Both the position numbers and the translations under genes were made by a program. Source: Corallococcus sp. AB038B (GTDB lineage Bacteria > Myxococcota > Myxococcia > Myxococcales > Myxococcaceae). Taken from it: a stretch of 64,000 nt of DNA. Every line of letters starts with the position of its first letter. Within the stretch, counting starts at the first letter, position 1. The DNA lies in NCBI RefSeq assembly GCF_003668955.1, contig NZ_RAWO01000002.1, positions 215,605-279,604 on the forward strand, read 5' to 3'. Shown one piece after another: positions 23,048-36,183 of the stretch. The notes below the pieces were generated by a model, which was given only the letters and a program-made list of their open reading frames with translations, made no database searches and was not told the origin of the DNA.

Positions 23048-26000
23048 CCCCGTCCAGCTCCAGGTCCGCGTCGTCGTCCGAGTCCCGCGCGGGTGCGGCC
23101 ACCGTCTTGCGAGCGAAGGCCTGTCGCCGGCGAGACCGGTCGCGTCCGGACTTCGCCCCGCTGTCGGATCCGCCGCCCTGCGCCAGGCGTTCCGCCAGGG
23201 CCCGGACCGTGGAGTGCTGGAAGAGCACCGTCAGCGGCAGCTCCACGCCCAGCTCCGCGCGCAGCCGCTGGTGCAGCCGCAGCGCGAGCAGCGAGTTGCC
23301 GCCCAGCTCGAAGAACGGATCATCCAGGCCCACGCGCTCCACCTGGAGCACGTCGCTCCAGAGCCGGGCCAGTTGCTCCTCCCGCTCCGTGCGCGGAGCC
23401 TCGAACGTTCGCCCCGATTCCAGCTGACCCGCAGTGGGTGGCGGAAGCGCGCGCACGTCCAGCTTGCCGTTGGCGGTGAGGGGGAACGCGGGCACGGAGA
23501 CGAAGGCGGAGGGCACCATGTGCGGCGGGAGCCGCTCCAGGAGGAACGCGTGCAGCGCCGTCGCGGTGGGTGGTTGTCCCGCCGTGGCCGGGACGAGCCA
23601 CGCGACGAGCCGCTGGCCCCCCGCGGGCGTGTCCTGGATGAGCACGGCGGCCTCTTCCACCGAGGCGTGCTGGCGGAGCGCCGCCTCGATTTCCCCCAGC
23701 TCGATGCGGAAGCCCCGCAGCTTCACCTGTCCATCGAGCCGGCCCAGGAACTCCAGCTCCCCGTCCTGCCGCCAGCGCACGCGGTCTCCCGTGCGGTAGA
23801 GGCGCGCGCCCGGCTCGGACGCGTACGGATCCGGCACGAAGCGCTCGGCCGTGGTGCCCGGCAGGTTCAGGTAACCCCGCGCGAGGCCCACGCCGCCCAC
23901 GCACAGCTCTCCGGGGACTCCCACTGGCACCGGCGACAGCCGCGCGTCCAGCACGTACACGCGCACATTGGGGATGGGGCGGCCCAGCGGCGGCGCGCGG
24001 CCCTCCGGCCGGACCTCCGTCGCGGTGGCTGTCACCGTCACCTCCGTGGGCCCGTAACCGTTGATGAAGCGGCGGCCCTCGCCCCAGCGCGACACCAGCT
24101 CCGCGGTGCATGCCTCGCCACCGGAGAAGACGGTGCGCAGCGAGGGCAGGCCCGTGGCGTCGGTGGCCGCGAGCGCAGTGGGCGTGGCGTTGAGCACGGT
24201 GATGGCCTGTTGCTTCAGCAGCTGGTGCAGCGGCTCGCCGGGCATCAGTCGCTCCACCGGCGCCAGGCACAAGGTGCCGCCGGCCGTGAGGGTGGCGAAG
24301 ATCTCCTCCACGGACACATCGAAGCCGGGATTGGAGAACTGGAGCACGCGCGAGGCCGGGCCCAGCTCGCTGACGCGCGCCTCGTGCACCACCAGGTTGC
24401 AGGCCGCGCGGTGCGTGGCCACGACGCCCTTGGGCTGGCCCGTGGAGCCAGAGGTGTAGATGACGTACGCGGGGCCGTCCGGCAGGGGCGCTCCAGGGGG
24501 CGCCCGCGAGGTGTCCGCATCCGGCACCCCATCCTCGAAGCACACCGTGCGCGCGCCCGGAGCGGAGGGCAGTCCCGCGAGCAGGGTCCGGTGGGCCAGC
24601 AGCACCTTCACGGCGGAGTCCTGGAGCATGAAGGCCAGCCGCGCCGCGGGATAGGTGGGATCCAACGGGACATAGGCACCGCCCGCCTTGAGCGTCGCGA
24701 GCATGCCCACCACCATGTCGAACGAGCGCGCGGCGCACAGCCCCACGTACGCCTCCGGCCCCACGCCCAACCCGCGCAGGTGCCAGGCCCACTGGTTGGC
24801 GCGCGCATCCAGCTGCCGGTAGCTCAGCGATTGGCCCTCGAAGGTGAGCGCGGGCGCGTAGGGCGTGCGGTGCGCCTGGGCTTCGAAGAGGGTGTGCAGA
24901 CCGTCCTCTTGGGGGTAGGGCGCGGAAGTGCCGCTCCACGCCCCCAGCAACTGTTCGCGCTCGTTTGGGGTGAGCAGGGGCAGCCGAGACAGGCGCTCGT
25001 GCGGCGTGGCCAGTGCTCCCTCCAGAAGGCGGATCAGGTGCGCCAACATCCGGCGGACGGTGCCGGGTTCGAACAGGTCCGTGGGGTACTCCGCGGTGAG
25101 GCGCAGTCCCTGGGGCAGGTCCTCGGCGATGAGCGTCAGGTCGAACTGGGCGGAAGCCGTGTCCACCGGACGCGCCTCCAGTTGAAGGCCCGGCACCTCC
25201 AGGGGCGGCAGCGGTGCGTTCTGGAGGACGAACATCGCCTGGAAGAGGGGCGCGCGGCTCGGGTCGCGACCGGGCTTGAGGGCGTCCACCAGCCGCTCGA
25301 AGGGAAGCTCCTCGCGAGCGAAGGCATCGAGCGCCACCGGCTGGAGACGCGCCAGCAGCTCCCGGAAGGACGGGGCACCTGAAAGGTCCGTCCGCAGGAC
25401 GACCGTGTTGACGAACAGGCCGATGAGCCCCTCCAGCTCCGCGCGGGGGCGGTTGGCCACGGGCGTTCCGACGGCGAGGTCCTCCTGACCGGTGTAGCGG
25501 TGGAGCAGGGTCTGGAACACCGCCAGCAGGGTGACGAACAGCGTGCGGCCTTCCTTGCGGGCGAACGCCTTGAGGTCCGCGGTGAGCGCGGTGGGCAGTT
25601 CCACCGCTTCGCGCGCGCCGCGAGTGCCCAGCACCGCCGGACGCGGCTTGTCCGTGGGCAGCTCCAGCAACGCGTGGGGGTCGATGCGCTCGCGCCACCA
25701 GGCGAGCCGTGCATCCGCCTCTTCGCCCTGCTGGGCCCGACGCTGCCAGCTGGCGTAGTCGCCGTACTGCAGCGGAAGCGGCGGCAGCTCGGGAGCCTTG
25801 CCCTCCTGGAAGGCCGCGTAGAGCGCCGTCAACTCGCGGACGACGACGCCCATGGACCAGGCGTCTGACACCCCGTGGTGCATGGCGAAGAGGAGCAGGT
25901 GCTCGCGCGCGGACAGCTGGAAGAGGCGCGCCCGGAACAGCGGACCCCGTTCCAGGTCGAAGGGCTCACGGGCCACCTCCGCGACGCGCTGGACGGCCCG

Positions 26001-26378
26001 GGCCTCCCGTTCTGATTGAGGAAGCGCCTGCAGGTCCTCCAGGGGGAGTGCCGCCTCCAGCGTGGGTGCGACGACCTGCACGGGCCGCCCGTCCGCCAGA
26101 GAGAAGGTGGTGCGCAGCGCCTCATGGCGGATCACCAGCGCCTGGAGCGCGCGCTGGAGCACCGGCGCCTGGAGCTCGCCCAAAAGCCGCACGGCCACCG
26201 GCATGTTCAGCGCCGAGCCCCCGGGGCTCCACTGTTCGAGGAACCACATCCGTTCCTGCGCGAAGGAGAGCGGAGCGCGCCTGGGGGCCGCGACCTTCTC
26301 CTGGAGGAGCTTCGCCAGCAGGGCCCGCTTGTCGTCCGAGGGTGACGTCATGGTTTCCATCATCGCCCTGGAGGGCAT
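23034..26378 (-). CDS. NRPS loading module: N-terminal (starter-type) C domain, A domain, PCP, acidic C-terminal docking tail
   Basis: C 'MHHGVSDAWS'; A 'YTSGSTGQPKG', 'NGYGPTE', 'GELCVGG'; PCP 'LGGNSLLAL'. C-terminus 'DSDDDADLELDGDADV'. Stop TGA 23034-23036 lies 14 nt inside the next gene. Alternative in-frame ATGs at codons 6, 7 and 10. A-domain code D-V-E-N-F-G-G-V. Confidence 0.9.
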   Translation of the reverse strand: MPSRAMMETMTSPSDDKRALLAKLLQEKVAAPRRAPLSFAQERMWFLEQWSPGGSALNMPVAVRLLGELQAPVLQRALQALVIRHEALRTTFSLADGRPVQVVAPTLEAALPLEDLQALPQSEREARAVQRVAEVAREPFDLERGPLFRARLFQLSAREHLLLFAMHHGVSDAWSMGVVVRELTALYAAFQEGKAPELPPLPLQYGDYASWQRRAQQGEEADARLAWWRERIDPHALLELPTDKPRPAVLGTRGAREAVELPTALTADLKAFARKEGRTLFVTLLAVFQTLLHRYTGQEDLAVGTPVANRPRAELEGLIGLFVNTVVLRTDLSGAPSFRELLARLQPVALDAFAREELPFERLVDALKPGRDPSRAPLFQAMFVLQNAPLPPLEVPGLQLEARPVDTASAQFDLTLIAEDLPQGLRLTAEYPTDLFEPGTVRRMLAHLIRLLEGALATPHERLSRLPLLTPNEREQLLGAWSGTSAPYPQEDGLHTLFEAQAHRTPYAPALTFEGQSLSYRQLDARANQWAWHLRGLGVGPEAYVGLCAARSFDMVVGMLATLKAGGAYVPLDPTYPAARLAFMLQDSAVKVLLAHRTLLAGLPSAPGARTVCFEDGVPDADTSRAPPGAPLPDGPAYVIYTSGSTGQPKGVVATHRAACNLVVHEARVSELGPASRVLQFSNPGFDVSVEEIFATLTAGGTLCLAPVERLMPGEPLHQLLKQQAITVLNATPTALAATDATGLPSLRTVFSGGEACTAELVSRWGEGRRFINGYGPTEVTVTATATEVRPEGRAPPLGRPIPNVRVYVLDARLSPVPVGVPGELCVGGVGLARGYLNLPGTTAERFVPDPYASEPGARLYRTGDRVRWRQDGELEFLGRLDGQVKLRGFRIELGEIEAALRQHASVEEAAVLIQDTPAGGQRLVAWLVPATAGQPPTATALHAFLLERLPPHMVPSAFVSVPAFPLTANGKLDVRALPPPTAGQLESGRTFEAPRTEREEQLARLWSDVLQVERVGLDDPFFELGGNSLLALRLHQRLRAELGVELPLTVLFQHSTVRALAERLAQGGGSDSGAKSGRDRSRRRQAFARKTVAAPARDSDDDADLELDGDADV

Positions 26379-26641
26379 GAAAACGTTGAGAACCCCGCGA
26401 ATGTCTCACGAAACATCCGGGGCTCCGACAAGCCGCTGGATCTCCCCCTTCACGGCGACTTTTCGACCCAGGGGAGGGGGCTCTTGCAGTCGCAGCGAAA
26501 CGGTGTTTCCGGCCGAGTGGCCTCCCACCGGGCCCTCTCAGGGTGAGGGGAGGGATGTCTGTTATTGATGTGTGGCTTTGCGGTGGAGAAAAGTCGCCGG
26601 GCACGCCCGTAGGCACGGTGGTCCGGGTAGACTCCGGAGCC

Positions 26642-28036
26642 ATGGGTGCCGCGTCGAACTCCCCCGGAGGGAAGAATGCGCTCTTGCGCGGCCTTCCTTC
26701 CATTGAACAACTCTTGCGTCGACCGTCGTTGGAGTCCCGGCTCGCGAACCTTCCCCATGCCCGCGCCGTCGCGGCACTGCGGCTCGCCGTTGAACGTGTG
26801 CGCGCAAGGTTGCTCGGGGGGGACCCGCGTCCTTTCGAGGACGCGGACGTGGAGGCGGCGCTCGCGTCCCTGGCCACGCCGAACCTCCGGCGCGTGATCA
26901 ACGCCACCGGCGTCGTGCTCCACACGAACCTCGGCCGCGCACCGCTCGCTCCAGAAGCCGTGGAGCGAGTTGTCGCCGTGGCCCGGGGCTACTCCAACCT
27001 CGAATACGACCTGGACGAAGGCGAACGCGGCAGCCGCTACGCTCCGCTCATCGGCCTCCTGCGCACGCTCACCGGCGCGGAGGACGCCATCGTGGTCAAC
27101 AACTGCGCGGGGGCCGTGCTCCTCATCCTCGCCGCGCTAGCCTCCGGCCGTGAGTGCGTTGTGTCCCGCGGCGAGCTCGTCGAAATCGGCGGAGGCTTCC
27201 GCATCCCGGACGTCATGCGCCAGTCCGGCGCGAAGCTCGTCGAAGTGGGCACCACCAACCGCACCCGCCGCGCGGACTACGCCAACGCACTGAGTCCAGA
27301 CACCGGCCTCATCGTGAAGGTCCACCGCTCCAACTTCGCGCTCGTCGGCTTCACGGAAGAGGCGCCCCTGACGGAGCTCACCGAGTTGGGACGCTCCCGT
27401 GACGTGCCCGTGTTCCAGGACCTGGGCTCCGGCGCACTCATTCCGCTGTCCGGCCCAGGCCTCACCCCGGAGCCCACCGTGGGCCAGGCCATCCGGGACG
27501 GCGCGGACGTCGTTGCCTTCTCCGGCGACAAGCTCCTCGGCGGCCCCCAGGCCGGCGTCATCGTTGGCCGCGCGGACCTGCTCCAGCGCATCAAATCCCA
27601 CCCGCTCACACGTGCGCTGCGTGTCGACAAGATGACGGTCGCGGCCCTGGAGGCGACGCTGGAGCTGTACCGGGATGGCCGCGCGGACGCGGTCCCCACC
27701 CAAAGCCTGCTCACCCAGCAACCGGCTTTGTTGCGATCCCGTGCCGAACGCCTGGCGGCCCTGCTCGCGGCGCACGGCGTCGAGGGCCGGGTCGTGTCCG
27801 TGGACGGACAAGTAGGTGGAGGTGCCATGCCGCTGTCCCGGTTGCCTTCCTACGCTTGCAGCCTCACCGTAGAAGCGCCGAAAGTATTCCTGGAACGTCT
27901 GCGCGAAGCCGAGGTGCCCGTTATTGGCAGGATTGCGGATGACGAGGTCGTTCTCGACGTCCGGTGTCTCTCAGAGGAGGACCTGGGGCAGGTCGCGCAG
28001 GCTGTGGCGGCCGCCCGTTCGGGAAGCCAGCCATGA
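26642..28036 (+). CDS. selA: L-seryl-tRNA(Sec) selenium transferase
   Basis: 464 aa from the ATG at 26642 ('[28 protein letters not shown]'). Motifs '[40 protein letters not shown]' contain the SelA PLP-lysine region. The track ORF extends upstream to 26543. Confidence 0.85.
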   Translation: [464 protein letters not shown]

Positions 28037-28626
28037 TCAACAGCGCCGTGCTCGTTTTAAACCGGTACTACCAACCGGTTCACGTGACGTCAGTCAAACG
28101 GGCCTTTTCCCTGCTGTATCAGGGCGTCGCCAAAGCCATCGACGAACAGTACCGGCTGTATGAGTTCGAGGACTGGGCCGCCCTCAGCGCCACCCAGGAC
28201 AGCATCACCACCATCGACCGCACCATCCGCGTGCCGCGCGTCCTCGTGCTCGGCGCGTATGACCACCTGCCTCGCGCCAAGGTGCGCTTCTCGCGCCTCA
28301 ACATCTACGCGCGCGACAACGACACCTGCCAGTACTGCGCGAAGCAGCTGCCCCGCAGCGAGCTCAACCTGGACCACGTCAGCCCCCGCACCCAGGGCGG
28401 AAAGACGACGTGGGAGAACGTCGTGTGCTCCTGCGTGCCCTGCAACCTGAAGAAGGGCGGGCGCACTCCGGAACAGGCCGGGATGCGGCTGCTCAAGAAG
28501 CCCGTACGCCCGCGCTGGACGCCGCTGTTCCGTGGCGCCATCCGCAAGATCACCTACCGGGAGTGGCTGCCGTTCCTCCACCTCGCGGATGTGTCGTACT
28601 GGAACGTCGAGCTGCTCGACGAGTGA
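28033..28626 (+). CDS. HNH endonuclease
   Basis: ATG 28033 overlaps the selA stop (ATGA). Carries 'CQYCAK...LNLDHVSPRTQGGKTTWENVVCSCVPCNLKKGG', a CxxC...H-N-H...CxxC zinc-finger HNH core. Confidence 0.8.
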   Translation: MINSAVLVLNRYYQPVHVTSVKRAFSLLYQGVAKAIDEQYRLYEFEDWAALSATQDSITTIDRTIRVPRVLVLGAYDHLPRAKVRFSRLNIYARDNDTCQYCAKQLPRSELNLDHVSPRTQGGKTTWENVVCSCVPCNLKKGGRTPEQAGMRLLKKPVRPRWTPLFRGAIRKITYREWLPFLHLADVSYWNVELLDE

Positions 28627-28718
28627 CAGCGAACGGCTCCCCGGCCGCCTGCTCCCCGAGCCTCCGGGCTCCGGGGCGCGGGCTTCGGGCGCTACAGGGT
28701 CGGCCGTGAAATGGCGGG

Positions 28719-29795
28719 GTGTCGACTCGGGCGGTAGGACGGGCTTTGATGCGAGCCTTCGTGAAGCCCGCCCCCCTGCCTCCATCCGCTCCCGCCCCAC
28801 TGGCTGGCACCTCGCCGCGTGCAGCCAATGACGCATCGCCCTCGGGACCCGCGGGCCTCGCGCGGCGCTCCCGCGCGCGGCGGATCATCGCGGTGGGCGG
28901 TGGCAAGGGCGGCATCGGCAAGTCGATGGTGTCCGCCAACCTGGGTGTCGCGCTCGCGCAGGCAGGCCAGAAGGTGCTGCTCGTGGACGCCGACCTGGGC
29001 GGCGCCAACCTGCACACCTGCCTGGGCGTGGGCCCTCCAGAGTCCACGCTGTCGGACTTCCTCCGCCGTGGGAAGGCCAACCTCGAAGAGGTGATGGTCT
29101 CCACCGGCGTGCCCGGGCTGTCGCTGATCGCCGGCGCACAGGACTCGCTGGACGCGGCGAACCTCAAGTACGCGCAGAAGCAGAAGCTCTTGCGCACGCT
29201 GCTGTCGCAGACGACGGCGGACTACCTCATCCTGGACCTGGGCGCGGGCACCAGCTTCAACACGCTCGACTTCTTCCTCATCGCGGACCACGGCCTGCTC
29301 GTCGTGCTGCCGGAGCCCACGTCCGTGGAGAACGCGTACCGCTTCGTCAAGGCGGCCTTCTTCCGCAAGCTCCAGCAGACGGAGGCGCGCTACGGCATCC
29401 AGGACATGGTCGAGGGCGCGCTGTCCACCCGCGAGGGCGCCCTGCGGACGCTGCACGACATCGTCGCGCAGGTGCGGCGCAAGGCCCCTTCCGACGCGGA
29501 GCGGCTGGAGCGCGAGCTGGCGGCGTTCCACGTGCGGCTCGTCGTGAACCAGGCTCGCACGGACGCGGACGAGAAGGTCGGCGCCGCGATGGTGTCCGCG
29601 TGGAAGAAGTTCTTCGGCATCGACATGGATGACCTGGGCGCCCTGCGCCACGACGATGAAGCGTGGCGCGCGGTGCGCAAGCGCAAGCCGGTGCTCCTCG
29701 AGCGGCCCGATTCGCCCGTATCCCAGGGACTCCAGCGCATCGCAGCGCGTATCCTGACGCTCGACGGCATTTCCCCCGAGTCCGCCATCCCATGA
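28719..29795 (+). CDS. ParA/MinD-family P-loop ATPase with ~60-aa Pro/Ala-rich N-terminal extension
   Basis: Deviant Walker A 'IAVGGGKGGIGKS', 'LLVDADLGGANL'. GTG 28719 start (alternative ATG 28749). Stop overlaps the next gene (ATGA at 29792). Confidence 0.8.
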   Translation: MSTRAVGRALMRAFVKPAPLPPSAPAPLAGTSPRAANDASPSGPAGLARRSRARRIIAVGGGKGGIGKSMVSANLGVALAQAGQKVLLVDADLGGANLHTCLGVGPPESTLSDFLRRGKANLEEVMVSTGVPGLSLIAGAQDSLDAANLKYAQKQKLLRTLLSQTTADYLILDLGAGTSFNTLDFFLIADHGLLVVLPEPTSVENAYRFVKAAFFRKLQQTEARYGIQDMVEGALSTREGALRTLHDIVAQVRRKAPSDAERLERELAAFHVRLVVNQARTDADEKVGAAMVSAWKKFFGIDMDDLGALRHDDEAWRAVRKRKPVLLERPDSPVSQGLQRIAARILTLDGISPESAIP

Positions 29796-31543
29796 AGCCC
29801 TTCGCGCAGCAGACCTACTACGAGATCCTGGAGGTGCCGCCCACGGCGAGCGACGCGGACATCCGCGCGGCCCACCAGCGCCTGATGGAGCTGTATTCGC
29901 CGGATTCCATCGCGGTGTACGCGCTGGGGGATCCGGATCAGGTGGAAGCGCTGCGTGACCGGATGAACGAAGCGATGGAGATGCTCACCGACGCGGACCT
30001 GCGCGTCGAGTATGACCGCTCCATCGGGCTGACCACGGAGCGGCTGGCGAAGGCCGCCGCGACGGCGGAGGCCGCGGGCGCGGTGGACTCGGCCGCGCGT
30101 GTCGCGGAGGCCCTGGCCACCGCGGCGGCGGCGCTGGCGAAGGCCGCGGGCGCGGTGGATGCCGAAAGGCTGGAGGCGGAGTCGCGACTGAAGGCCGCGA
30201 CGTCCGTGAACGACGATGAAGGGGAGGCGGCTCGCGCGAGCGGGACGCCTGGAAAGAGCGAGGAGCGGATGCGGGGTGAGGAGTCGACGCGGCAGGAGTC
30301 CTCGGGGCTGGACGCGCCAGGCGTGCCCTCCGAGCCGGTGATGGTGGGTGGCGTGGCGGTGGTGGAGGCCTTCCGTGCCTCGTTCACCCGGAGCCTGTCG
30401 TTCGTCTACGTCCCCGCGAGTCCGCTGCGCGGCCAGGGCAGGGGAGCCACCGAAGCGCCGGCCCCCGCCGTGGACGTGAAGTCCTCCATTGCAGAGAACG
30501 CGCCGGCTGCCTCGGCACCCAGGGCCGAGGCGCCTGGCCCGGTCGAGCCCCCTGCCAATGCGGTCGCGTCGCCTGCGGAAGCCGTGCCTCCGGCCGGATC
30601 CGTTTCCGCGCCCGCGAGCTCCTCCGTCGAGCCCCCGGAAGCCGCGGAGCCTTCCGCGGCGGTCGCCCCAGACCGCGTTGAGGCCTTCGATGCGCCTGTT
30701 GCCTCCGAGGCAACAGAGGTCCCGGCTCCCCAGCCCGTGACGGACCCCCATCCCGTGGCCGCGTCGCCCGTGGCCGAGGTCAGCGCCACTCCCGCCGCGC
30801 CGCTCACGCCGGAAGAGAGCGCCACGCCCTCCGCGCTGGTTGCCGCGACTCACGTGCCTGAAGCGGGCGCCGCGCCGGAAGCCAGCGCCGCGCCCCAGGC
30901 CCCGGAGACCGGAGCCGTGGCCGCCAGCCCCGCGCCCGCCTCCGACGCGGCGGCGGTGACGACCACCCAGGGCGAGTCGGATCCGAACCCCGCTCCGGGC
31001 ACTCCGACCCTGGACTCCAGTACGACCGCGCTGGCCCGGATCCCCGCCACCGGGGCCTCCCGCGCCGCCGTTCGGCCCCTGACGTCGTCTCGCCCTGGCG
31101 ACTCGCGTCCGCCGCAGAAGGGCCCCACGGGGCCGGGCACCGTGAAGGGCCCCACGGTCCGCAAGCTCGGGGACGCCCAGGTCCTGGCTCAGGACTCCGC
31201 CATCGCGACCGCCGAGTCCGCGCTGGCCCAGGTGGCCGCCAAGGTCCGCGAGGCCCGTCCCCGGGGCGTGGACATCCCCTCGGATGCAGAGTTCAACGGC
31301 GAACTGCTCCGCCGCGTCCGCGAGGCCCGCGGCCTCTCCATCCAGCAGCTGGCCGACCGCACCCGCATCTCCGTGCGTCACCTGGAGAACGTGGAGGCGG
31401 ACCGCTACACCGCGCTCCCCACCACCGTGTATCTGCGCGGCATCCTCATGAACCTCGCCCGAGAGCTGGGCCTGGACCCCCTGCGCGTGTCCAAGAGCTA
31501 CCTCGCGCTGTTCTCCGAGAAACCCGCCAAGTCGGGCCGTTGA
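29792..31543 (+). CDS. J-domain (DnaJ-like) protein with Pro/Ala-rich linker and C-terminal RodZ/XRE-type helix-turn-helix
   Basis: N-terminus 'QTYYEILEVPPTASDADIRAAHQRLMELYSPD' is a J domain without the HPD tripeptide (it has 'YSPD'). ~350 aa follow that are rich in Pro/Ala/Glu/Ser. C-terminus 'GLSIQQLADRTRISVRHLENVEADRYTALPTTVYLRGIL' is an HTH. Confidence 0.7.
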   Translation: MKPFAQQTYYEILEVPPTASDADIRAAHQRLMELYSPDSIAVYALGDPDQVEALRDRMNEAMEMLTDADLRVEYDRSIGLTTERLAKAAATAEAAGAVDSAARVAEALATAAAALAKAAGAVDAERLEAESRLKAATSVNDDEGEAARASGTPGKSEERMRGEESTRQESSGLDAPGVPSEPVMVGGVAVVEAFRASFTRSLSFVYVPASPLRGQGRGATEAPAPAVDVKSSIAENAPAASAPRAEAPGPVEPPANAVASPAEAVPPAGSVSAPASSSVEPPEAAEPSAAVAPDRVEAFDAPVASEATEVPAPQPVTDPHPVAASPVAEVSATPAAPLTPEESATPSALVAATHVPEAGAAPEASAAPQAPETGAVAASPAPASDAAAVTTTQGESDPNPAPGTPTLDSSTTALARIPATGASRAAVRPLTSSRPGDSRPPQKGPTGPGTVKGPTVRKLGDAQVLAQDSAIATAESALAQVAAKVREARPRGVDIPSDAEFNGELLRRVREARGLSIQQLADRTRISVRHLENVEADRYTALPTTVYLRGILMNLARELGLDPLRVSKSYLALFSEKPAKSGR

Positions 31544-31583
31544 CCGGGAGTTGGCCAGACCCCCTCCCGTGCGACGGGAAAAG

Positions 31584-31613
31584 TTGACTCGCACGGGGTG
31601 GGTGCCTAAGTAG
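31584..31613 (+). promoter_or_regulatory. Candidate sigma-70-like promoter (TTGACT - 17 nt - TAAGTA) directly abutting the ATG at 31621
   Basis: Perfect -35 hexamer at 31584-31589, a 17-nt spacer, and a weak -10 at 31607-31612. The start codon lies 8 nt after the -10, implying a leaderless or very short-leader transcript. Confidence 0.3.
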
Positions 31614-31620
31614 TGGCACG

Positions 31621-31884
31621 ATGACGGAAGAGGAAAAGGTCAAGGCGATGCGACTCGCTCGCGCGATCGCCTCCGATATCTCGCTCTACAACGAGCAGAA
31701 GATCATCAAGGGCATCGAGCAGGACAACCTTTTCGAGGTCCTCAAGGAGGAACTGGAAGAGGGGCGAGCGCTCTACAAGAGCCGCGTGAGCGCGGAAATC
31801 AGCACCCAGGCGAACTTCTTCGAGCGTGCCATCAACGACATCGTGTTGCGCTCCAAGGCGCACGTGAAGTCGAAGATCTGGTAG
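31621..31884 (+). CDS. Small acidic hypothetical protein (87 aa)
   Basis: ORF with strong GC3 bias, 'MTEEEKVKAMRLARAIASDISLYNEQKIIKGIEQDN...'. Sits between the J-domain gene and the pseudouridine synthase gene. Confidence 0.55.
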   Translation: MTEEEKVKAMRLARAIASDISLYNEQKIIKGIEQDNLFEVLKEELEEGRALYKSRVSAEISTQANFFERAINDIVLRSKAHVKSKIW

Positions 31885-31895
31885 CGCCCTCCGCC

Positions 31896-32921
31896 GTGGC
31901 CGCACCCGACACGCGCGAGCACCGTGCCCTCCCCGAAGCCCGGGGTGAGCGACTGGATGCGTACATGGCCCGCGCGTTCCCGGACCTCACGCGCTCCCGC
32001 CTCCAGGGCCTCATCGCCGACGGCCACGTGCTGTCGGACGGCAAGCCCGGCAAGACCGCGCAGCGTCTGCGCGGAGGCGAGCTGCTGGTCCTCCACATCC
32101 CCGCACCCGTCGCGGCCATCCCGCAGGCGGAAGCCCTGCCCGTGTCCGTACTGCACGAGGACCGCGACCTCGTCGTCGTGGACAAGGCCGCCGGCATGGT
32201 GGTGCACCCGGGCGCGGGCCACGCGTCCGGCACGCTCGTCAACGCGCTCCTGCACCGCGTGAAGGACCTGGCCGGCGTGGGCGGCGAGCTGCGCCCCGGC
32301 ATCGTCCACCGCCTGGACAAGGACACCACCGGCTGCCTCGTCGTCGCCAAGCACGAGCAGGCGCTGGTGGCGCTCCAGAAGGCCTTCAAGACGCGCGAGG
32401 TCCAGAAGACGTACCTGGCCCTGGTGCACGGCGTGCCGCCCGCGGAAGGGCGCATCGAGACGCTCTACGGCCGCCACCCCATCCACCGGCAGAAGTTCAC
32501 CGGCAAGGTGAAGGAGGGCAAGACCGCCATCACCCTGTTCCGCGTGCGCGAGGCCTTCGACGGCGCCGCGCTGGTGGAGGTGGACCTGCTCACCGGCCGC
32601 ACGCATCAGATCCGCGTCCATCTGGCGGAAGCCGGACACCCGCTCTTGTGCGACGCGCTCTACGGCGCCGGCCGCAAGGCGAAGGGCGCGGTGGCGGAAG
32701 CCCAGGAGGCGGTGGGCCGTCAGGCGCTGCACGCGTGGCGCCTGGCCTTCGAGCACCCGCGCACCCACAAGGCGCTGGACCTGGAAGCCCCCCTCCCGGA
32801 GGACTTCCAGAAAGCGCTCACGCGCCTGCGCGAGGCGAGCGTCCCCGCGGGCCCGCCCACGAAGGCGAAGCCCGCGGCGAAGAAGCCGGCGGCGAAGAAG
32901 GCTACAGGCCGGAAACGCTGA
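31896..32921 (+). CDS. RluA-family 23S rRNA pseudouridine synthase (RluD-like, S4 + catalytic domain)
   Basis: Catalytic 'HRLDKDTTGCLVVAKH' and S4-like N-terminus. GTG start at 31896. Confidence 0.85.
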   Translation: MAAPDTREHRALPEARGERLDAYMARAFPDLTRSRLQGLIADGHVLSDGKPGKTAQRLRGGELLVLHIPAPVAAIPQAEALPVSVLHEDRDLVVVDKAAGMVVHPGAGHASGTLVNALLHRVKDLAGVGGELRPGIVHRLDKDTTGCLVVAKHEQALVALQKAFKTREVQKTYLALVHGVPPAEGRIETLYGRHPIHRQKFTGKVKEGKTAITLFRVREAFDGAALVEVDLLTGRTHQIRVHLAEAGHPLLCDALYGAGRKAKGAVAEAQEAVGRQALHAWRLAFEHPRTHKALDLEAPLPEDFQKALTRLREASVPAGPPTKAKPAAKKPAAKKATGRKR

Positions 32922-34212
32922 TCTGCTGCTGGCGGCGGGAGAGGACCTTGATGGGCTGGATGGCCATCACCCGCATGAAGACGGACAGCAGCTCCGGGTC
33001 GAACTTCTGGCGCATCTCCGTCCACATCAGCATCAGCGCCACCTCCGGGCCGTACGCGTCCCGGTAGGGCCTGCGGGAGGTGAGCGCGTCGTACGCGTCG
33101 CAGATGGCGATGATCTTCGCGTACACCCCCAGGTTCGTCTTGGGGATGATCATCTGGATGTTGCCGCGCGCGTCCCGCACCGCGGTGCCGTAGTCCGTCT
33201 TGTGCTCGAACGTCGTCACCACGCGCAGGAGCGTGGAGCGGCTGAAGCCCTTCTCCATCAGGATGTTGCGCACGCTGATGAGCGGGGCGCGGGCCACCGT
33301 CGTCTTCTCGTCCGCGGTGAGCGCGCCGCGCTTGGTGGCCAGCTCCTCCGGCAGCGTCGTCATGCCCGCGTCGTGGAAGAGCGCGATGTAGCCCAGGTCG
33401 CGCAGCTGCGGCTTGGTAAGGCCCAGCTCCGCGCCGAACACGATGCACATCAGCGCCACGTTCACCTGATGGTAGACGAGGTAGTCCTCCTCGCGCTTCT
33501 GCGTCGTCATGCCCAGGAAGTGGGTGCGCTGATCGTAGGAGATGTCCACGAAGTCCTGCACCAGGCGCAGCGCCCGCGACGAGCCGATGGGCTTCCCCGC
33601 GCGCACGGACTCCAGGTACTTCTGCAGGAAGAACACCGCGCGGGCGTACACGGTCATCGCGTACTTCTTGCGGTCGACCTTCTGGTCGCCCGGGTTGTCC
33701 ATGTCCTTGTTCAGCTTCTCCTTCAGCTTGGAGAACTTCGCCACGCGCATGTTGAGGAGCTTGCGCCCCTGCAGGCCGTCCTCCTCCGCGGTGGAGGACT
33801 GCTCCTTGCTGAAGATCCAGACGAAGTTCTTCAGCTCCTGCGTGGTGACGGGCTTGGTCAGCGTGATGCCGCCCACGTCCTTGGCGCGCAGCTCCGACAG
33901 CAGGTAGCGCTGGTTCTCGATGGAGTTGAGGTCCACCTTCACCAGCATGCCGTTCAGGTAGAACGAGTCCTTGACGCCCGTCAGCTCCAGCCGGCCTTCC
34001 TTGCCGATGATCTGGTTGATGATGTCCTGGAGCTGGTGGAGCGGCTTTTCGAAAACGGCGTTCTCCGGGTCATACATCTTCACCGAGCGCACCAGCATGT
34101 AGAGGCCGGCGAGCATGGAGCGCGACAGGTTCTGGAGCTTCTCGTTGTGCTCTCGACCGTACTCGCCCAGGTTTTCGTCCTGGGTCTGATTGATCTTCAG
34201 ATTGTCGGCCAT
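32902..34212 (-). CDS. HD-GYP domain c-di-GMP phosphodiesterase-like protein
   Basis: 'HDAGMTTLPEEL', 'AICDAYDALTSRRPYRDA' and 'GYP'-type C-terminus. ATG at 34212 ('MADNLKINQ'); the track ORF extends spuriously to 34410. Its 3' end overlaps the convergent rluD-like gene by 20 nt. Confidence 0.8.
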   Translation of the reverse strand: MADNLKINQTQDENLGEYGREHNEKLQNLSRSMLAGLYMLVRSVKMYDPENAVFEKPLHQLQDIINQIIGKEGRLELTGVKDSFYLNGMLVKVDLNSIENQRYLLSELRAKDVGGITLTKPVTTQELKNFVWIFSKEQSSTAEEDGLQGRKLLNMRVAKFSKLKEKLNKDMDNPGDQKVDRKKYAMTVYARAVFFLQKYLESVRAGKPIGSSRALRLVQDFVDISYDQRTHFLGMTTQKREEDYLVYHQVNVALMCIVFGAELGLTKPQLRDLGYIALFHDAGMTTLPEELATKRGALTADEKTTVARAPLISVRNILMEKGFSRSTLLRVVTTFEHKTDYGTAVRDARGNIQMIIPKTNLGVYAKIIAICDAYDALTSRRPYRDAYGPEVALMLMWTEMRQKFDPELLSVFMRVMAIQPIKVLSRRQQQISVSGL

Positions 34213-34216
34213 GGTG

Positions 34217-35983
34217 TCAGCTCGCCTCTTCCGGCAGCGCCGAGTCCCCGAACAGGGCCTTGCGCGTCTGGTACATCGCCTTGCGGGCCGCGGTGAGGAC
34301 GTCCAAGGGCTGCGCCTTGTCCTCCAACACGCCCTGCAACATCTTGTAGGACTGGATGGAACCCGCGCCGCCCAGGCCCGTAATCGCCAGCAGCTTGTCC
34401 TCCAGCACACGCCGCTTGTTCAGCAGTGACGGCTTCACCGTCAGCAACTGCTGCATCATCGACAGCGCGGCGGGCAGGTTGGTGGCCCCGATGGCCGCGT
34501 AGAAGGCGGCCTTCTCGTCGGATGTCTTCTTGTCCCAGCTCGACTCGCGCACCTGCCGCACCAGGTCCGTGAAGGCCCGCTCGCGGTCGAACTCCGGCAG
34601 CAGCTTCGCGGCCAGCATGCGCACCTGCGCGACGCCGTCGGTGAGCGCATCCAGGATGATGCGCCGGGCCTCCGCCGTGCGGCCCCGCCCGATGATCTGC
34701 ATGACCTCCAGCTTCACCACCAGGTTGGGGCTCTTCATCACCTGGCCGAACATCTTCACCCGCTCCGGGTGGTTGCTCTTCTCCAGGATGTAGACCATGT
34801 CGCGCACCGTCTGCGGCCGGTCCGACAAGAGGCGCGCGACGAAGGGCTCCGGCAGGTCTCGCGCGAACGTGGCCAGCACGTCGCCAATGAGCAGGCGGTT
34901 CTCCGGCAGTTCAATCGTCTCCAACACGCTGAGCAGCGGCAGCACCGAGTCCACGCCCAGCGCCTGCAGGTAGCGCGTCACGTCCTGCGGCTGCCGCGTG
35001 CGCGTCGTCTTCAGCGACTCGCCCAGCCGCGTGAGGCGCTGCTCCTCGCCCATCTTGTGGAGGAAGTTGTTGAGCATGCGCCCCAGGTCCTCGCCGCCTT
35101 CGCGCTGGGAGAGCGCGCGCAGCTTGAGGACGATCTGGTTCACCGTGGCGAAGTCGTCCTGGAGCAGCAGCATGTCCAGCAGCTGCAGGAAGATCTCCTC
35201 CAGCAGCGCCGCGTCATCCACGCCGCCTTCCACCACCTGGAACACCGCGCCCACCAGCTTGGGAAAGAGGCGCGCGTTCTCCTCCTCGGTGATGTCGCGC
35301 TGGATGCGGGCCTTCAGGTCGTCCGAGGCGTGCCGGCCGCCCACGACGAGGCCGCGGATCTGCTCCACGCCGTCCAGCTTCGCGTCCAGGTCCTCCGCGG
35401 ACACGCGCGCGAAGCGCAGGAAGTCATCCGAGTTCGTCTGGAGGCGGGAGTAGAGGTAGCCCACCACCTTGTCCACCTCCACCTGGACCTCGTCCTCGGA
35501 GGCGCCCTCCATGGAGAAGCCCTCCACCACCACGTACTCCACCTGCTGCATGCCCGCGCGCCACAGCTGCGCGAGCACGTCGTCCGCGCCGCGCTCCGGC
35601 TCCGACAGCGCGATGAGCGTGAGGGTGACCAGCTCCTCCAGCGGCAGCCCCGGCCGGAAGATGAGCTGGCGGATGCCGTCGCGGAAGAACTTGTAGGGCA
35701 GCGGCGACTCTTCGGAGAAGAGCGGCTCGCCGTGCAGCATGAAGTTCTGCTGCTCCACCTTCAGCGAGAGCGGTCCGAACTTCTCCGTGTACGTGGAGAT
35801 GGCCTCCAGCGCCTTGGAGAGGAACTCCGGGAAGCGCGCCTCGTTGTGGCGGTACATGCCAATCTGCTTGATGCCCTTGAGCAGGTGGAACGCGAACGTC
35901 TTCGCCAACTCCACCTTTTCGCGGACCTCCGGTGACTGCTCCGGCTCCGCGGTCGCGTCCGTGACTTTCTGGGGCTGTGCCAT
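34217..35983 (-). CDS. Conserved hypothetical alpha-helical repeat (HEAT/ARM-like) protein, operonic with HD-GYP
   Basis: ATG at 35983 ('MAQPQKVTDA') preceded by AGGAT. The stop lies 4 nt upstream of the HD-GYP start. 588 aa, predicted all-helical. Confidence 0.6.
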   Translation of the reverse strand: MAQPQKVTDATAEPEQSPEVREKVELAKTFAFHLLKGIKQIGMYRHNEARFPEFLSKALEAISTYTEKFGPLSLKVEQQNFMLHGEPLFSEESPLPYKFFRDGIRQLIFRPGLPLEELVTLTLIALSEPERGADDVLAQLWRAGMQQVEYVVVEGFSMEGASEDEVQVEVDKVVGYLYSRLQTNSDDFLRFARVSAEDLDAKLDGVEQIRGLVVGGRHASDDLKARIQRDITEEENARLFPKLVGAVFQVVEGGVDDAALLEEIFLQLLDMLLLQDDFATVNQIVLKLRALSQREGGEDLGRMLNNFLHKMGEEQRLTRLGESLKTTRTRQPQDVTRYLQALGVDSVLPLLSVLETIELPENRLLIGDVLATFARDLPEPFVARLLSDRPQTVRDMVYILEKSNHPERVKMFGQVMKSPNLVVKLEVMQIIGRGRTAEARRIILDALTDGVAQVRMLAAKLLPEFDRERAFTDLVRQVRESSWDKKTSDEKAAFYAAIGATNLPAALSMMQQLLTVKPSLLNKRRVLEDKLLAITGLGGAGSIQSYKMLQGVLEDKAQPLDVLTAARKAMYQTRKALFGDSALPEEAS

Positions 35984-36183
35984 GAATCCTGGAAGAATCC
36001 GGAGGGGGCGGAAGGCCCCGGTGGGGGGAGCCTGGAGTGTACTCCCGTCCAGGTCCGGCTCCCAATTCGACAACTGCCCAGAATCCAGGGGGTTGGCGTG
36101 ACACCTGGGCAACATGGGGCGGACTGGCGGTGAAGCCCCGGTGTGTTACGCAAGGAGTCCCTTTGCAGCCTGGAGTCCCGTCC

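Follow-up and report, generated by a model that had tools for sequence, protein, structure and literature searches.

A conserved MinD/FlhG-clade ATPase and its often fused J-like/HTH_25 partner encoded upstream of romX in Corallococcus and conserved in distant lineages

The window analyzed here, a stretch of 64,000 nucleotides from the myxobacterium Corallococcus sp. AB038B (RefSeq assembly GCF_003668955.1, contig NZ_RAWO01000002.1, positions 215,605 to 279,604 of the forward strand; the coordinates below count from its first letter), contains two overlapping plus-strand genes that are the subject of this study. The first (28719..29795 as the longest open reading frame [ORF], with a GTG start) encodes an ATPase of the ParA/MinD superfamily. 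The second, referred to as gene B (29792..31543), encodes a protein of 583 amino acids (aa) that combines an N-terminal J-like domain (aa 1 to 79, 29792..30028), a disordered linker rich in Ala, Pro, Ser, and Glu (about aa 144 to 456, 30221..31159), and a C-terminal helix-turn-helix (HTH) domain of the RodZ type with five helices, HTH_25 (aa 503 to 575, 31298..31516). Both belong to a row of six plus-strand genes, i.e., selA, an HNH endonuclease gene, the ATPase gene, gene B, romX, and the gene of an RluA-family pseudouridine synthase. A first-pass annotation made from the letters alone had regarded the two genes as a candidate positioning/scaffold pair and as a system not yet characterized; indeed, literature searches returned no study of the ATPase/J-HTH_25 pair and no mention of MXAN_3348, the Myxococcus xanthus counterpart of the ATPase. 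The comparisons presented below indicate that the ATPase and its partner form one evolutionary unit.

Of 80 related genome loci, sampled from Corallococcus, Myxococcus, Pyxidicoccus, Archangium, Cystobacter, Hyalangium, Vitiosangium, Citreicoccus, and many metagenome-assembled genomes (MAGs), about 70 share the gene arrangement, which is also present in distant lineages. The stop codon of the ATPase gene and the start codon of gene B overlap by 4 nt in 36 of the related loci and are separated by 8 nt in another 12. As shared gene order within a single family proves little by itself, the search was extended to distant relatives. The ATPase served as the query in an exhaustive HMMER search, which revealed a common subfamily: the clusters at E < 1e-30 numbered more than 1000 and included full-length relatives at 35 to 50% identity. 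Among the best 150 cluster representatives, 26 were fusion proteins, which joined the ATPase to both the J-like domain and HTH_25 (9 cases), to HTH_25 (15 cases), or to the J-like domain (2 cases); wherever the J-like domain is present in a fusion, it lies next to the ATPase. One fusion of 463 aa occupies the equivalent locus, in the order SelA-HNH-fusion-RomX (58% identical)-RluD, and is present as identical copies in three independent assemblies. Such identical sequences in independent assemblies make it unlikely that the fusions are artefacts of assembly or frameshifts.

Adjacency tells the same story where the proteins are separate. In all six unfused distant relatives examined (35 to 50% identity), among them a Nitrospinae MAG and a "Deltaproteobacteria bacterium" cluster, a DnaJ/HTH_25 gene overlaps the ATPase gene or follows it 2 to 12 nt downstream. 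A metagenome scan with the subfamily consensus, graded by identity, served as a control: the partner was adjacent or fused in 14 of 16 loci with at least 45% identity to the consensus, in 2 of 16 loci with 35 to 44%, and in none of 45 loci with at most 33% identity, which represent generic MinD/FlhG relatives. The pair is thus adjacent or fused far beyond this genome, so that the two genes do co-occur elsewhere. Because the partner is so often fused to the ATPase, the partnership is unambiguous at the level of the genes, and a true functional relationship is highly probable in view of the fusions, the adjacency in distant lineages with other surroundings, and the conserved overlap of stop and start codons.

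The ATPase was recognized correctly in the first-pass annotation as a deviant-Walker-A protein of the ParA/MinD type. It matches the Pfam families ParA, AAA_31, and CbiA, and its motifs (numbered for a protein of 348 aa) are invariant in the family alignment, i.e., GGGKGGIGKS at aa 50 to 59, DADLGG at aa 80, and LDLGAG at aa 162. These represent the deviant Walker A motif with its signature Lys, the A' motif with its Asp pair, and the Walker B Asp that characterize the superfamily, so that the catalytic motifs are complete. The best match in a sequence search of the PDB was FleN (5j1j, 4.9e-26), followed by FlhG and MinD, with Soj at 1.2e-6. A Foldseek search with the AF2 model (predicted local distance difference test [pLDDT] score of 78.5) returned FleN, FlhG, MinD, Soj, or ParA structures as its top 30 matches, all with a probability of 1.00, and the leading ones (FleN, FlhG, and MinD) had target-normalized template-modelling (TM) scores of 0.73 to 0.84. 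The scores for the NCBIfam MinD models stay below the cut-offs (TIGR01968, 84.6 versus 212.9 bits; TIGR01969, 104.5 versus 201.75 bits). Sequence and predicted structure therefore place the ATPase in the MinD/FlhG/FleN clade, nearer to FleN, FlhG, and MinD than to ParA.

Three regions of the ATPase distinguish it from this common fold. A helical insertion of about 50 aa relative to FleN (residues ~213 to 264) is strongly conserved and specific to the subfamily. The Pro/Ala-rich N-terminal tail MRAFVKPAPLPPSAPAPLAGTSPRAANDASPSGPAGLARRSRARR of about 42 aa, which had been noted beforehand and does contain 10 Ala and 9 Pro residues, is predicted to be disordered (pLDDT of <50) and varies within the family except for PPGL-RRxRxRR just ahead of strand 1. 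The C terminus ...LTLDGISPESAIP has no membrane-targeting helix; past the last helix of the fold (aa 323 to 338) only ...TLDGISPESAIP follows, which has a low pLDDT, is non-amphipathic, and varies in the family. Sister ATPases with 35 to 47% identity were seen that have no HTH partner, namely, a group fused to tetratricopeptide repeats and another followed by a gene that was judged lgt-like by eye (L091 5001-7190 with protein P0516, L112, and L116, at 36 to 39% identity), of which the lgt-linked ones carry a C-terminal extension of ~85 aa. Apparently, this ATPase scaffold has been combined with different adaptors.

The start of the ATPase gene probably lies downstream of GTG 28719, the position used in the first-pass annotation. 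The other candidates are ATG 28749, which gives the annotated length, and GTG 28761 ("MKP"). A DNA element of about 40 nt on the plus strand, GGCGGGGTGTCGACTCGGGCGGTAGGACGGGCTTTGATG (28712..28751), lies directly upstream of the ATPase start or overlaps it and is conserved as nucleotides across genera, i.e., in Corallococcus, Myxococcus, Pyxidicoccus, Hyalangium, and other loci, in differing reading frames. Conservation as DNA in different frames, and not as protein, argues that GTG 28719 is too far upstream. Annotated Corallococcus homologues have 348 aa, which is consistent with ATG 28749, and the codons [GT]TG-AAG-CCC at 28761 are the start best kept across genera. Since the ATG within the element varies among loci (e.g., GATAGG in L056), whereas the downstream "MKP" codons persist, GTG 28761 is also possible, and either of these two is probably the true start. 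Read as TCGACT-N17-TTTGAT, the element would be a candidate promoter or regulatory site; it was not called by a strict sigma-70 scan and has no match in Rfam.

The domain layout of the gene B product agrees with the earlier description in each of its parts. The J-like domain is supported by a Pfam DnaJ match (aa 8 to 75, 41.7 bits against a gathering cut-off of 27.8), by an AF2 model with pLDDT values of 84 to 92, and by Foldseek matches to J domains with target-normalized TM scores of 0.7 to 0.87. The sequence SPD replaces the HPD motif, as had been pointed out, and this is typical of the family: SPD, APD, SAD, DAD, GPE, GTE, and similar tripeptides occupy the position in 55 members, none of which has the His, and the His is likewise absent from all distant partners and fusions examined. 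A canonical DnaJ co-chaperone was downgraded as a reading of gene B, given that HPD occurs nowhere in the family. The region between the two domains (residues 81 to 495) consists of 25% Ala, 12.5% Pro, 9.6% Ser, and 8.4% Glu with a net charge of -19, and over most of residues 144 to 456 (about 315 residues) the pLDDT is below 50. This low-complexity linker is hypervariable between species in length and sequence; the alignment is conserved only at the short motif FRA[ST]F..G.S..YV.

The C-terminal domain, already taken for a RodZ/XRE-type HTH, matches HTH_25 (PF13413, aa 505 to 563) with 71.6 bits (4.6e-20), versus 24 to 30 bits for generic Xre models; HTH_31, HTH_19, and HTH_3 are also matched with at most 29.5 bits. 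It is modelled with pLDDT values of 80 to 89 and preceded by a conserved helix (aa 461 to 487). The best match in the PDB by sequence is the chlamydial RodZ Ct009 (4gqm) and by structure the Staphylococcus aureus YmfM (3fym, target-normalized TM score of 0.75, root mean square deviation of 1.9 Å); the structural matches also include the DNA-binding repressors DdrO, SinR, and ClgR. The RodZ HTH binds MreB through two aromatic residues, F60/Y64 in Escherichia coli and Y66/F70 in Ct009 (PMC4047632). In gene B these align to Y547, which is invariant, and I551, a site occupied by I, M, or F in Myxococcaceae. Both aromatics are retained in 10 of the 10 distant partners and fusions read, as VY[LVI][RK]GF, AYLRGF, or VFLRGY, judged by eye from the spacing [YF]-x-[RK]-G-[FY].

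The protein is nevertheless not a plain RodZ orthologue, the outcome that would have spoken against the initial proposal. The scores against the RodZ equivalog models are below the cut-offs (40 versus 375 and 21 versus 208), and no membrane segment (maximum of 1.44 in a 19-residue Kyte-Doolittle-type scan) and no Pfam DUF4115 match were detected in gene B, which argues against a canonical RodZ; furthermore, the HTH is C-terminal and a J-like domain is located at the N terminus. The partner is accordingly predicted to be wholly cytoplasmic. Across Myxococcaceae loci gene B encodes 252 to 661 aa, whereas distant partners have 196 to 291 aa, from which the long linker emerges as a Myxococcaceae-specific expansion, and "scaffold" can therefore not describe the ancestral function. 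HTH_25 is the constant element of the partner. The J-like domain is usual but not universal and, being undetectable in 15 of the 26 fusions, is dispensable for the core system. Of the earlier positioning/scaffold proposal, the functional pair hence stands, supported by fusions and distant co-occurrence, whereas the ATPase is less ParA-like and the linker more restricted than supposed; the functional label as such is inferred.

The 87-aa ORF downstream of gene B (31621..31884, plus strand) encodes RomX. It matches PDB entry 8zna_A, the solved RomX of M. xanthus, over residues 1 to 87 of 87 with about 93% identity (E value of 1.7e-46). The first-pass annotation had described a small acidic ORF in the same direction, which is real and co-directional, but its product is acidic at the N terminus only and has a net charge of 0, and its identity as RomX had been missed, as had the published DnaK interaction data for MXAN_3349. 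RomX is the best-conserved gene product of the block (77 to 100% identity across related loci), and every complete locus of Myxococcaceae has romX next after the pair. Five distant contexts (L081, L084, L086, L090, and L102), reached through ATPase relatives, likewise have a RomX-like gene beside the module; the matches listed in a search for RomX homologues all had at least 84% identity.

In M. xanthus, romX is MXAN_3350, and RomX forms a complex with RomR whose target is MglA, a GTPase of cell polarity. The complex was described in one study as a GEF (guanine nucleotide exchange factor) of MglA and later as an effector of MglA-GTP, and the studies conflict. Gene B can be equated with MXAN_3349 because of its position directly upstream of romX, and the J-domain sequence and the length of 579 aa given for it in PMC11019930 point in the same direction; the pair as a whole thus corresponds to MXAN_3348/MXAN_3349. 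According to that study, MXAN_3349 coimmunoprecipitates with MxDnaK1 and MxDnaK2, which was confirmed with split NanoLuc, it is one of six predicted J-domain proteins recovered, its expression drops on heat shock like that of MxDnaK2, and no gene of a J-domain protein neighbors dnaK1 or dnaK2 (PMC11019930).

The ATPase gene, gene B, romX, and the synthase gene (31896..32921, plus strand) look like one transcription unit, given their short spacings (-4, 77, and 11 nt, respectively) and the lack of a terminator-like site or canonical promoter called by signal scans between 28000 and 33200. The first junction is the ATGA coupling reported previously, in which the stop codon of the ATPase gene overlaps the start codon of gene B at 29792-29795 (context ...CCCATGAAGCCC). 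No Rfam family was found in the region from 26 to 34 kb. The 77-nt gap ahead of romX holds a perfect inverted repeat of 9 bp, CCCGTGCGA ... TCGCACGGG (31566-31597), which encloses a 14-nt spacer with TTGAC and could be a hairpin or a putative operator or promoter for romX. The synthase had been named RluD. It is a 23S rRNA pseudouridine synthase of the RluA family (Pfam PseudoU_synth_2 and S4; TIGR00005, 282 bits versus a cut-off of 192.7), but it scores below the RluD equivalog cut-off (236 versus 351) and is better called RluD-like. In five distant contexts (L081, L082, L086, L090, and the contig of P0386), the next genes after the module are, in this order, rluD and a Cu-oxidase_4 gene of the PgeF/YfiH type, whereas the window has no pgeF after its synthase gene; rluD-yfiH is the arrangement of E. 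coli.

The surroundings of the pair are typical of the family. The region has a G+C content of 68 to 72%, its proteins share 93 to 99% identity with those of Corallococcus exiguus and Corallococcus coralloides, and the block SelA-HNH-ATPase-JHTH-RomX-RluD with the subsequent HD_5 and HEAT genes is syntenic throughout Myxococcaceae. Upstream of the pair lie selA (26543-28036) and the HNH endonuclease gene (28033-28626), both on the plus strand and joined by an ATGA overlap of stop and start codons (28033-28036). The SelA-HNH pair also directly precedes the module in a distant metagenomic lineage (L081 3883-5899), and several Archangium and Pyxidicoccus loci have an insert of ~1.9 kb between the HNH and ATPase genes. 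An anti-phage defense function, as prompted by the HNH neighbor, was rejected, since a PADLOC search gave only weak domain-level matches (P-loop, 1.1e-5; HTH, 1.1e-4; and, in the upstream gene, a generic HNH) and no system-level match. Downstream of the synthase gene, the minus strand (32902-36115) carries one gene of the HD_5 (HD-GYP-like) type and one with HEAT repeats. An HD_5/HDOD gene also adjoins the Nitrospinae module (L089 3393-4385), which may be a coincidence or a hint of nucleotide signaling. A large minus-strand ORF upstream of selA (23034-26378) resembles a nonribosomal peptide synthetase, with condensation, adenylation, and carrier regions recognized by eye, and is apparently unrelated to the pair.

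A mechanism for the pair can be outlined as follows. The ATPase would act as an ATP-dependent dimerization switch, and the partner would contact it with its J-like or N-terminal part, as a regulator or cargo adaptor in the place of MinE, ParB, or FlhF; the J-like domain is the likely contact site because it lies next to the ATPase in the fusions. HTH_25 would dock the complex on MreB filaments in the manner of the RodZ HTH, and binding and hydrolysis of ATP would switch the assembly or location of this MreB-associated complex. In Myxococcaceae, the partner would have gained its acidic disordered spacer of ~300 to 400 aa, with the pair being co-operonic with romX-rluD, and the system would feed into the network of MglA, RomR/RomX, and MreB that governs front-rear polarity and gliding. 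The mechanism is coherent with three precedents, i.e., the binding of MreB by the RodZ HTH, a strong interaction between RodZ and MinD of Bacillus subtilis in two-hybrid assays (PMC5778138), and the direct binding of MreB by MglA-GTP, which assembles gliding complexes (PMC4508894). Taken as a whole, with the ATPase switch, the RodZ-like adaptor on MreB, and RomX in myxobacteria, it is put forward as a tentative model that commands somewhat less than half of our confidence. That HTH_25 binds MreB rather than DNA is conceivable at a similar or slightly lower level, and so is, about as far, a role in RomX/MglA polarity in myxobacteria. The boldest version is unlikely, namely, a widespread cytoplasmic "RodZ-MinD" system in which the ATPase times or places a soluble RodZ-like adaptor on MreB and which, recruited by way of its operon with romX and its large disordered spacer, would provide myxobacteria with the missing link or landmark from RomR/RomX-MglA to the MreB cytoskeleton required for gliding.

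Several observations weigh against this mechanism or narrow it. The second MreB-contact position is a non-aromatic Ile in the species of the window, and HTH_25 lies within the Xre superfamily, so that DNA binding has to be considered. The module occurs without RomX in L082, L087, L088, and L089, which means that RomX is not part of its core function, and the module is linked to rluD, often with pgeF behind it, more widely than to romX. Three deep Myxococcota MAG loci (L030, L035, and L047) retain J-HTH-RomX-RluD without the ATPase directly upstream, and the published data on MXAN_3349 are confined to DnaK interactions. In these three loci, the J-like domain is further degenerate and its PDS motif is lost; two ORFs for Cys/Gly-rich, secreted-looking proteins take the place of the ATPase gene in L047. 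The main alternative to docking on MreB is a DNA-based system, in which HTH_25 would bind DNA and the pair would either use the nucleoid as a matrix like ParA, PomZ, and McdA or serve as an (auto)regulator of the romX-rluD operon in the manner of FleN or type Ia ParA. Type Ia ParA proteins bear an HTH and autoregulate their own operon, and the fusions of ATPase and HTH resemble them; moreover, FleN proteins, the nearest ATPases of solved structure, control a transcription factor, the HTH matches the HTH_31, HTH_19, and HTH_3 models and the repressor structures named above, and a conserved DNA element is located just upstream of the operon. The HTH_25 score of 71.6 bits is, however, far above those of the generic DNA-binding models, the best solved matches of the domain are RodZ homologues and not repressors, most of the family retains aromatics at the presumed MreB contacts, and no repeated operator-like sites were seen, though no search aimed at them was made; we regard a DNA-based system as unlikely.

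Less probable again is a chaperone adaptor, with gene B encoding a J co-chaperone that would recruit MxDnaK1/2 to a client or site (MreB, the ATPase, or the poles) and with the ATPase as client or regulator. It is the sole rival with experimental support, as MXAN_3349 binds MxDnaK1/2 according to PMC11019930. The J fold at the N terminus is confidently predicted, and TopJ of Mycoplasma offers an architectural analogue. However, the HPD tripeptide is needed for stimulation of the Hsp70 ATPase, and its His is lacking throughout the family and its distant relatives; in addition, the J-like domain is undetectable in more than half of the fusions, there is no dnaK nearby, and the disordered segment could make the protein a substrate of DnaK instead. 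As for the possibility that the two genes are mere neighbors with unrelated functions that inherited the synteny of Myxococcaceae, the whole block is indeed syntenic across the family, so that adjacency there proves little. Fusions in 26 independent clusters effectively refute this explanation, as do the adjacency in Nitrospinota and other distant lineages with differing flanks and the conserved stop/start overlap, and it is considered highly improbable. A cytoplasmic switch and adaptor on MreB, tentative as it is, is retained as the favored mechanism.

ATPases of the ParA/MinD family are main spatial organizers of bacterial cells, and each new pairing of such an ATPase with a partner has revealed new cargo. 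A partner that combines a J-like domain with a RodZ-type HTH is not known to have been described for them, and the subfamily reaches over Myxococcota, Nitrospinota, and unclassified "delta" lineages at the least. The pair of M. xanthus, an organism much used as a model of polarity, is located directly upstream of romX. If HTH_25 does bind MreB, the partner would represent a second, soluble class of MreB regulator and provide a concrete link between MglA polarity and MreB.

Among known systems, FleN and FlhG, MinD-like ATPases that set the number and placement of flagella, are closest to the ATPase. They rank first among its matches by sequence as well as by structure (5j1j, 8p53, and 4rz2; target-normalized TM scores of up to ~0.8), share the deviant Walker A motif, and have a dedicated partner (FleQ and FlhF, respectively), and relatives of the ATPase are annotated as "FlhG" at JGI. 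In contrast to them, the ATPase has only ~25% identity, contains the extra helical insertion, and lacks a C-terminal amphipathic membrane helix. FlhG carries the FlhF-activating motif DQAxxLR at its N terminus, which is missing from the N-tail of the ATPase; there are no flagellar genes among the neighbors, and the partner is a J-like/HTH_25 protein instead of FlhF or FleQ. MinD resembles the ATPase in clade, fold, and an ATP-dependent dimer switch under a small cognate partner, but the ATPase scores below the MinD cut-offs, has no membrane-targeting helix, and is not adjacent to minC or minE.

On the side of the adaptor, PomXYZ of M. xanthus, McdAB, ParC/ParP, and PpfA are systems in which a ParA/MinD-family ATPase stands beside cognate, partly disordered adaptors that regulate it. 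The present pair differs from them in its adaptor domains and in an ATPase that is MinD/FlhG-like rather than ParA-like (cf. the weak match to Soj); no homology to PomX or PomY turned up, a result that does not include a direct test for it. The orphan ParA1 and ParA2 of Bdellovibrio were dropped as possible orthologues, being by description Soj-like with unrelated neighbors. TopJ of Mycoplasma pneumoniae, a protein of the polar gliding organelle, consists of an N-terminal J domain with a canonical HPD, an acidic region rich in Pro, and a further domain at the C terminus. The gene B product has a comparable layout, but its match to the NCBIfam TopJ models is weak and restricted to the J domain (21 versus 300 bits), its family lacks HPD, and the C-terminal domains are unrelated. 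RodZ, finally, shares HTH_25 with the partner, which has an aromatic residue at the first of the two MreB-contact positions here and at both in the distant relatives read, and the RodZ-MinD interaction of B. subtilis is a further parallel. It differs in its N-terminal HTH, its transmembrane segment, and its periplasmic DUF4115, whereas the partner described here carries the HTH at the C terminus and is coupled or fused to a J-like domain and an ATPase. Each component is of a known kind, be it the ATPase of the MinD/FlhG clade, the J-like domain, or the RodZ-type HTH; no description of their conserved and often fused combination turned up in the literature searched.

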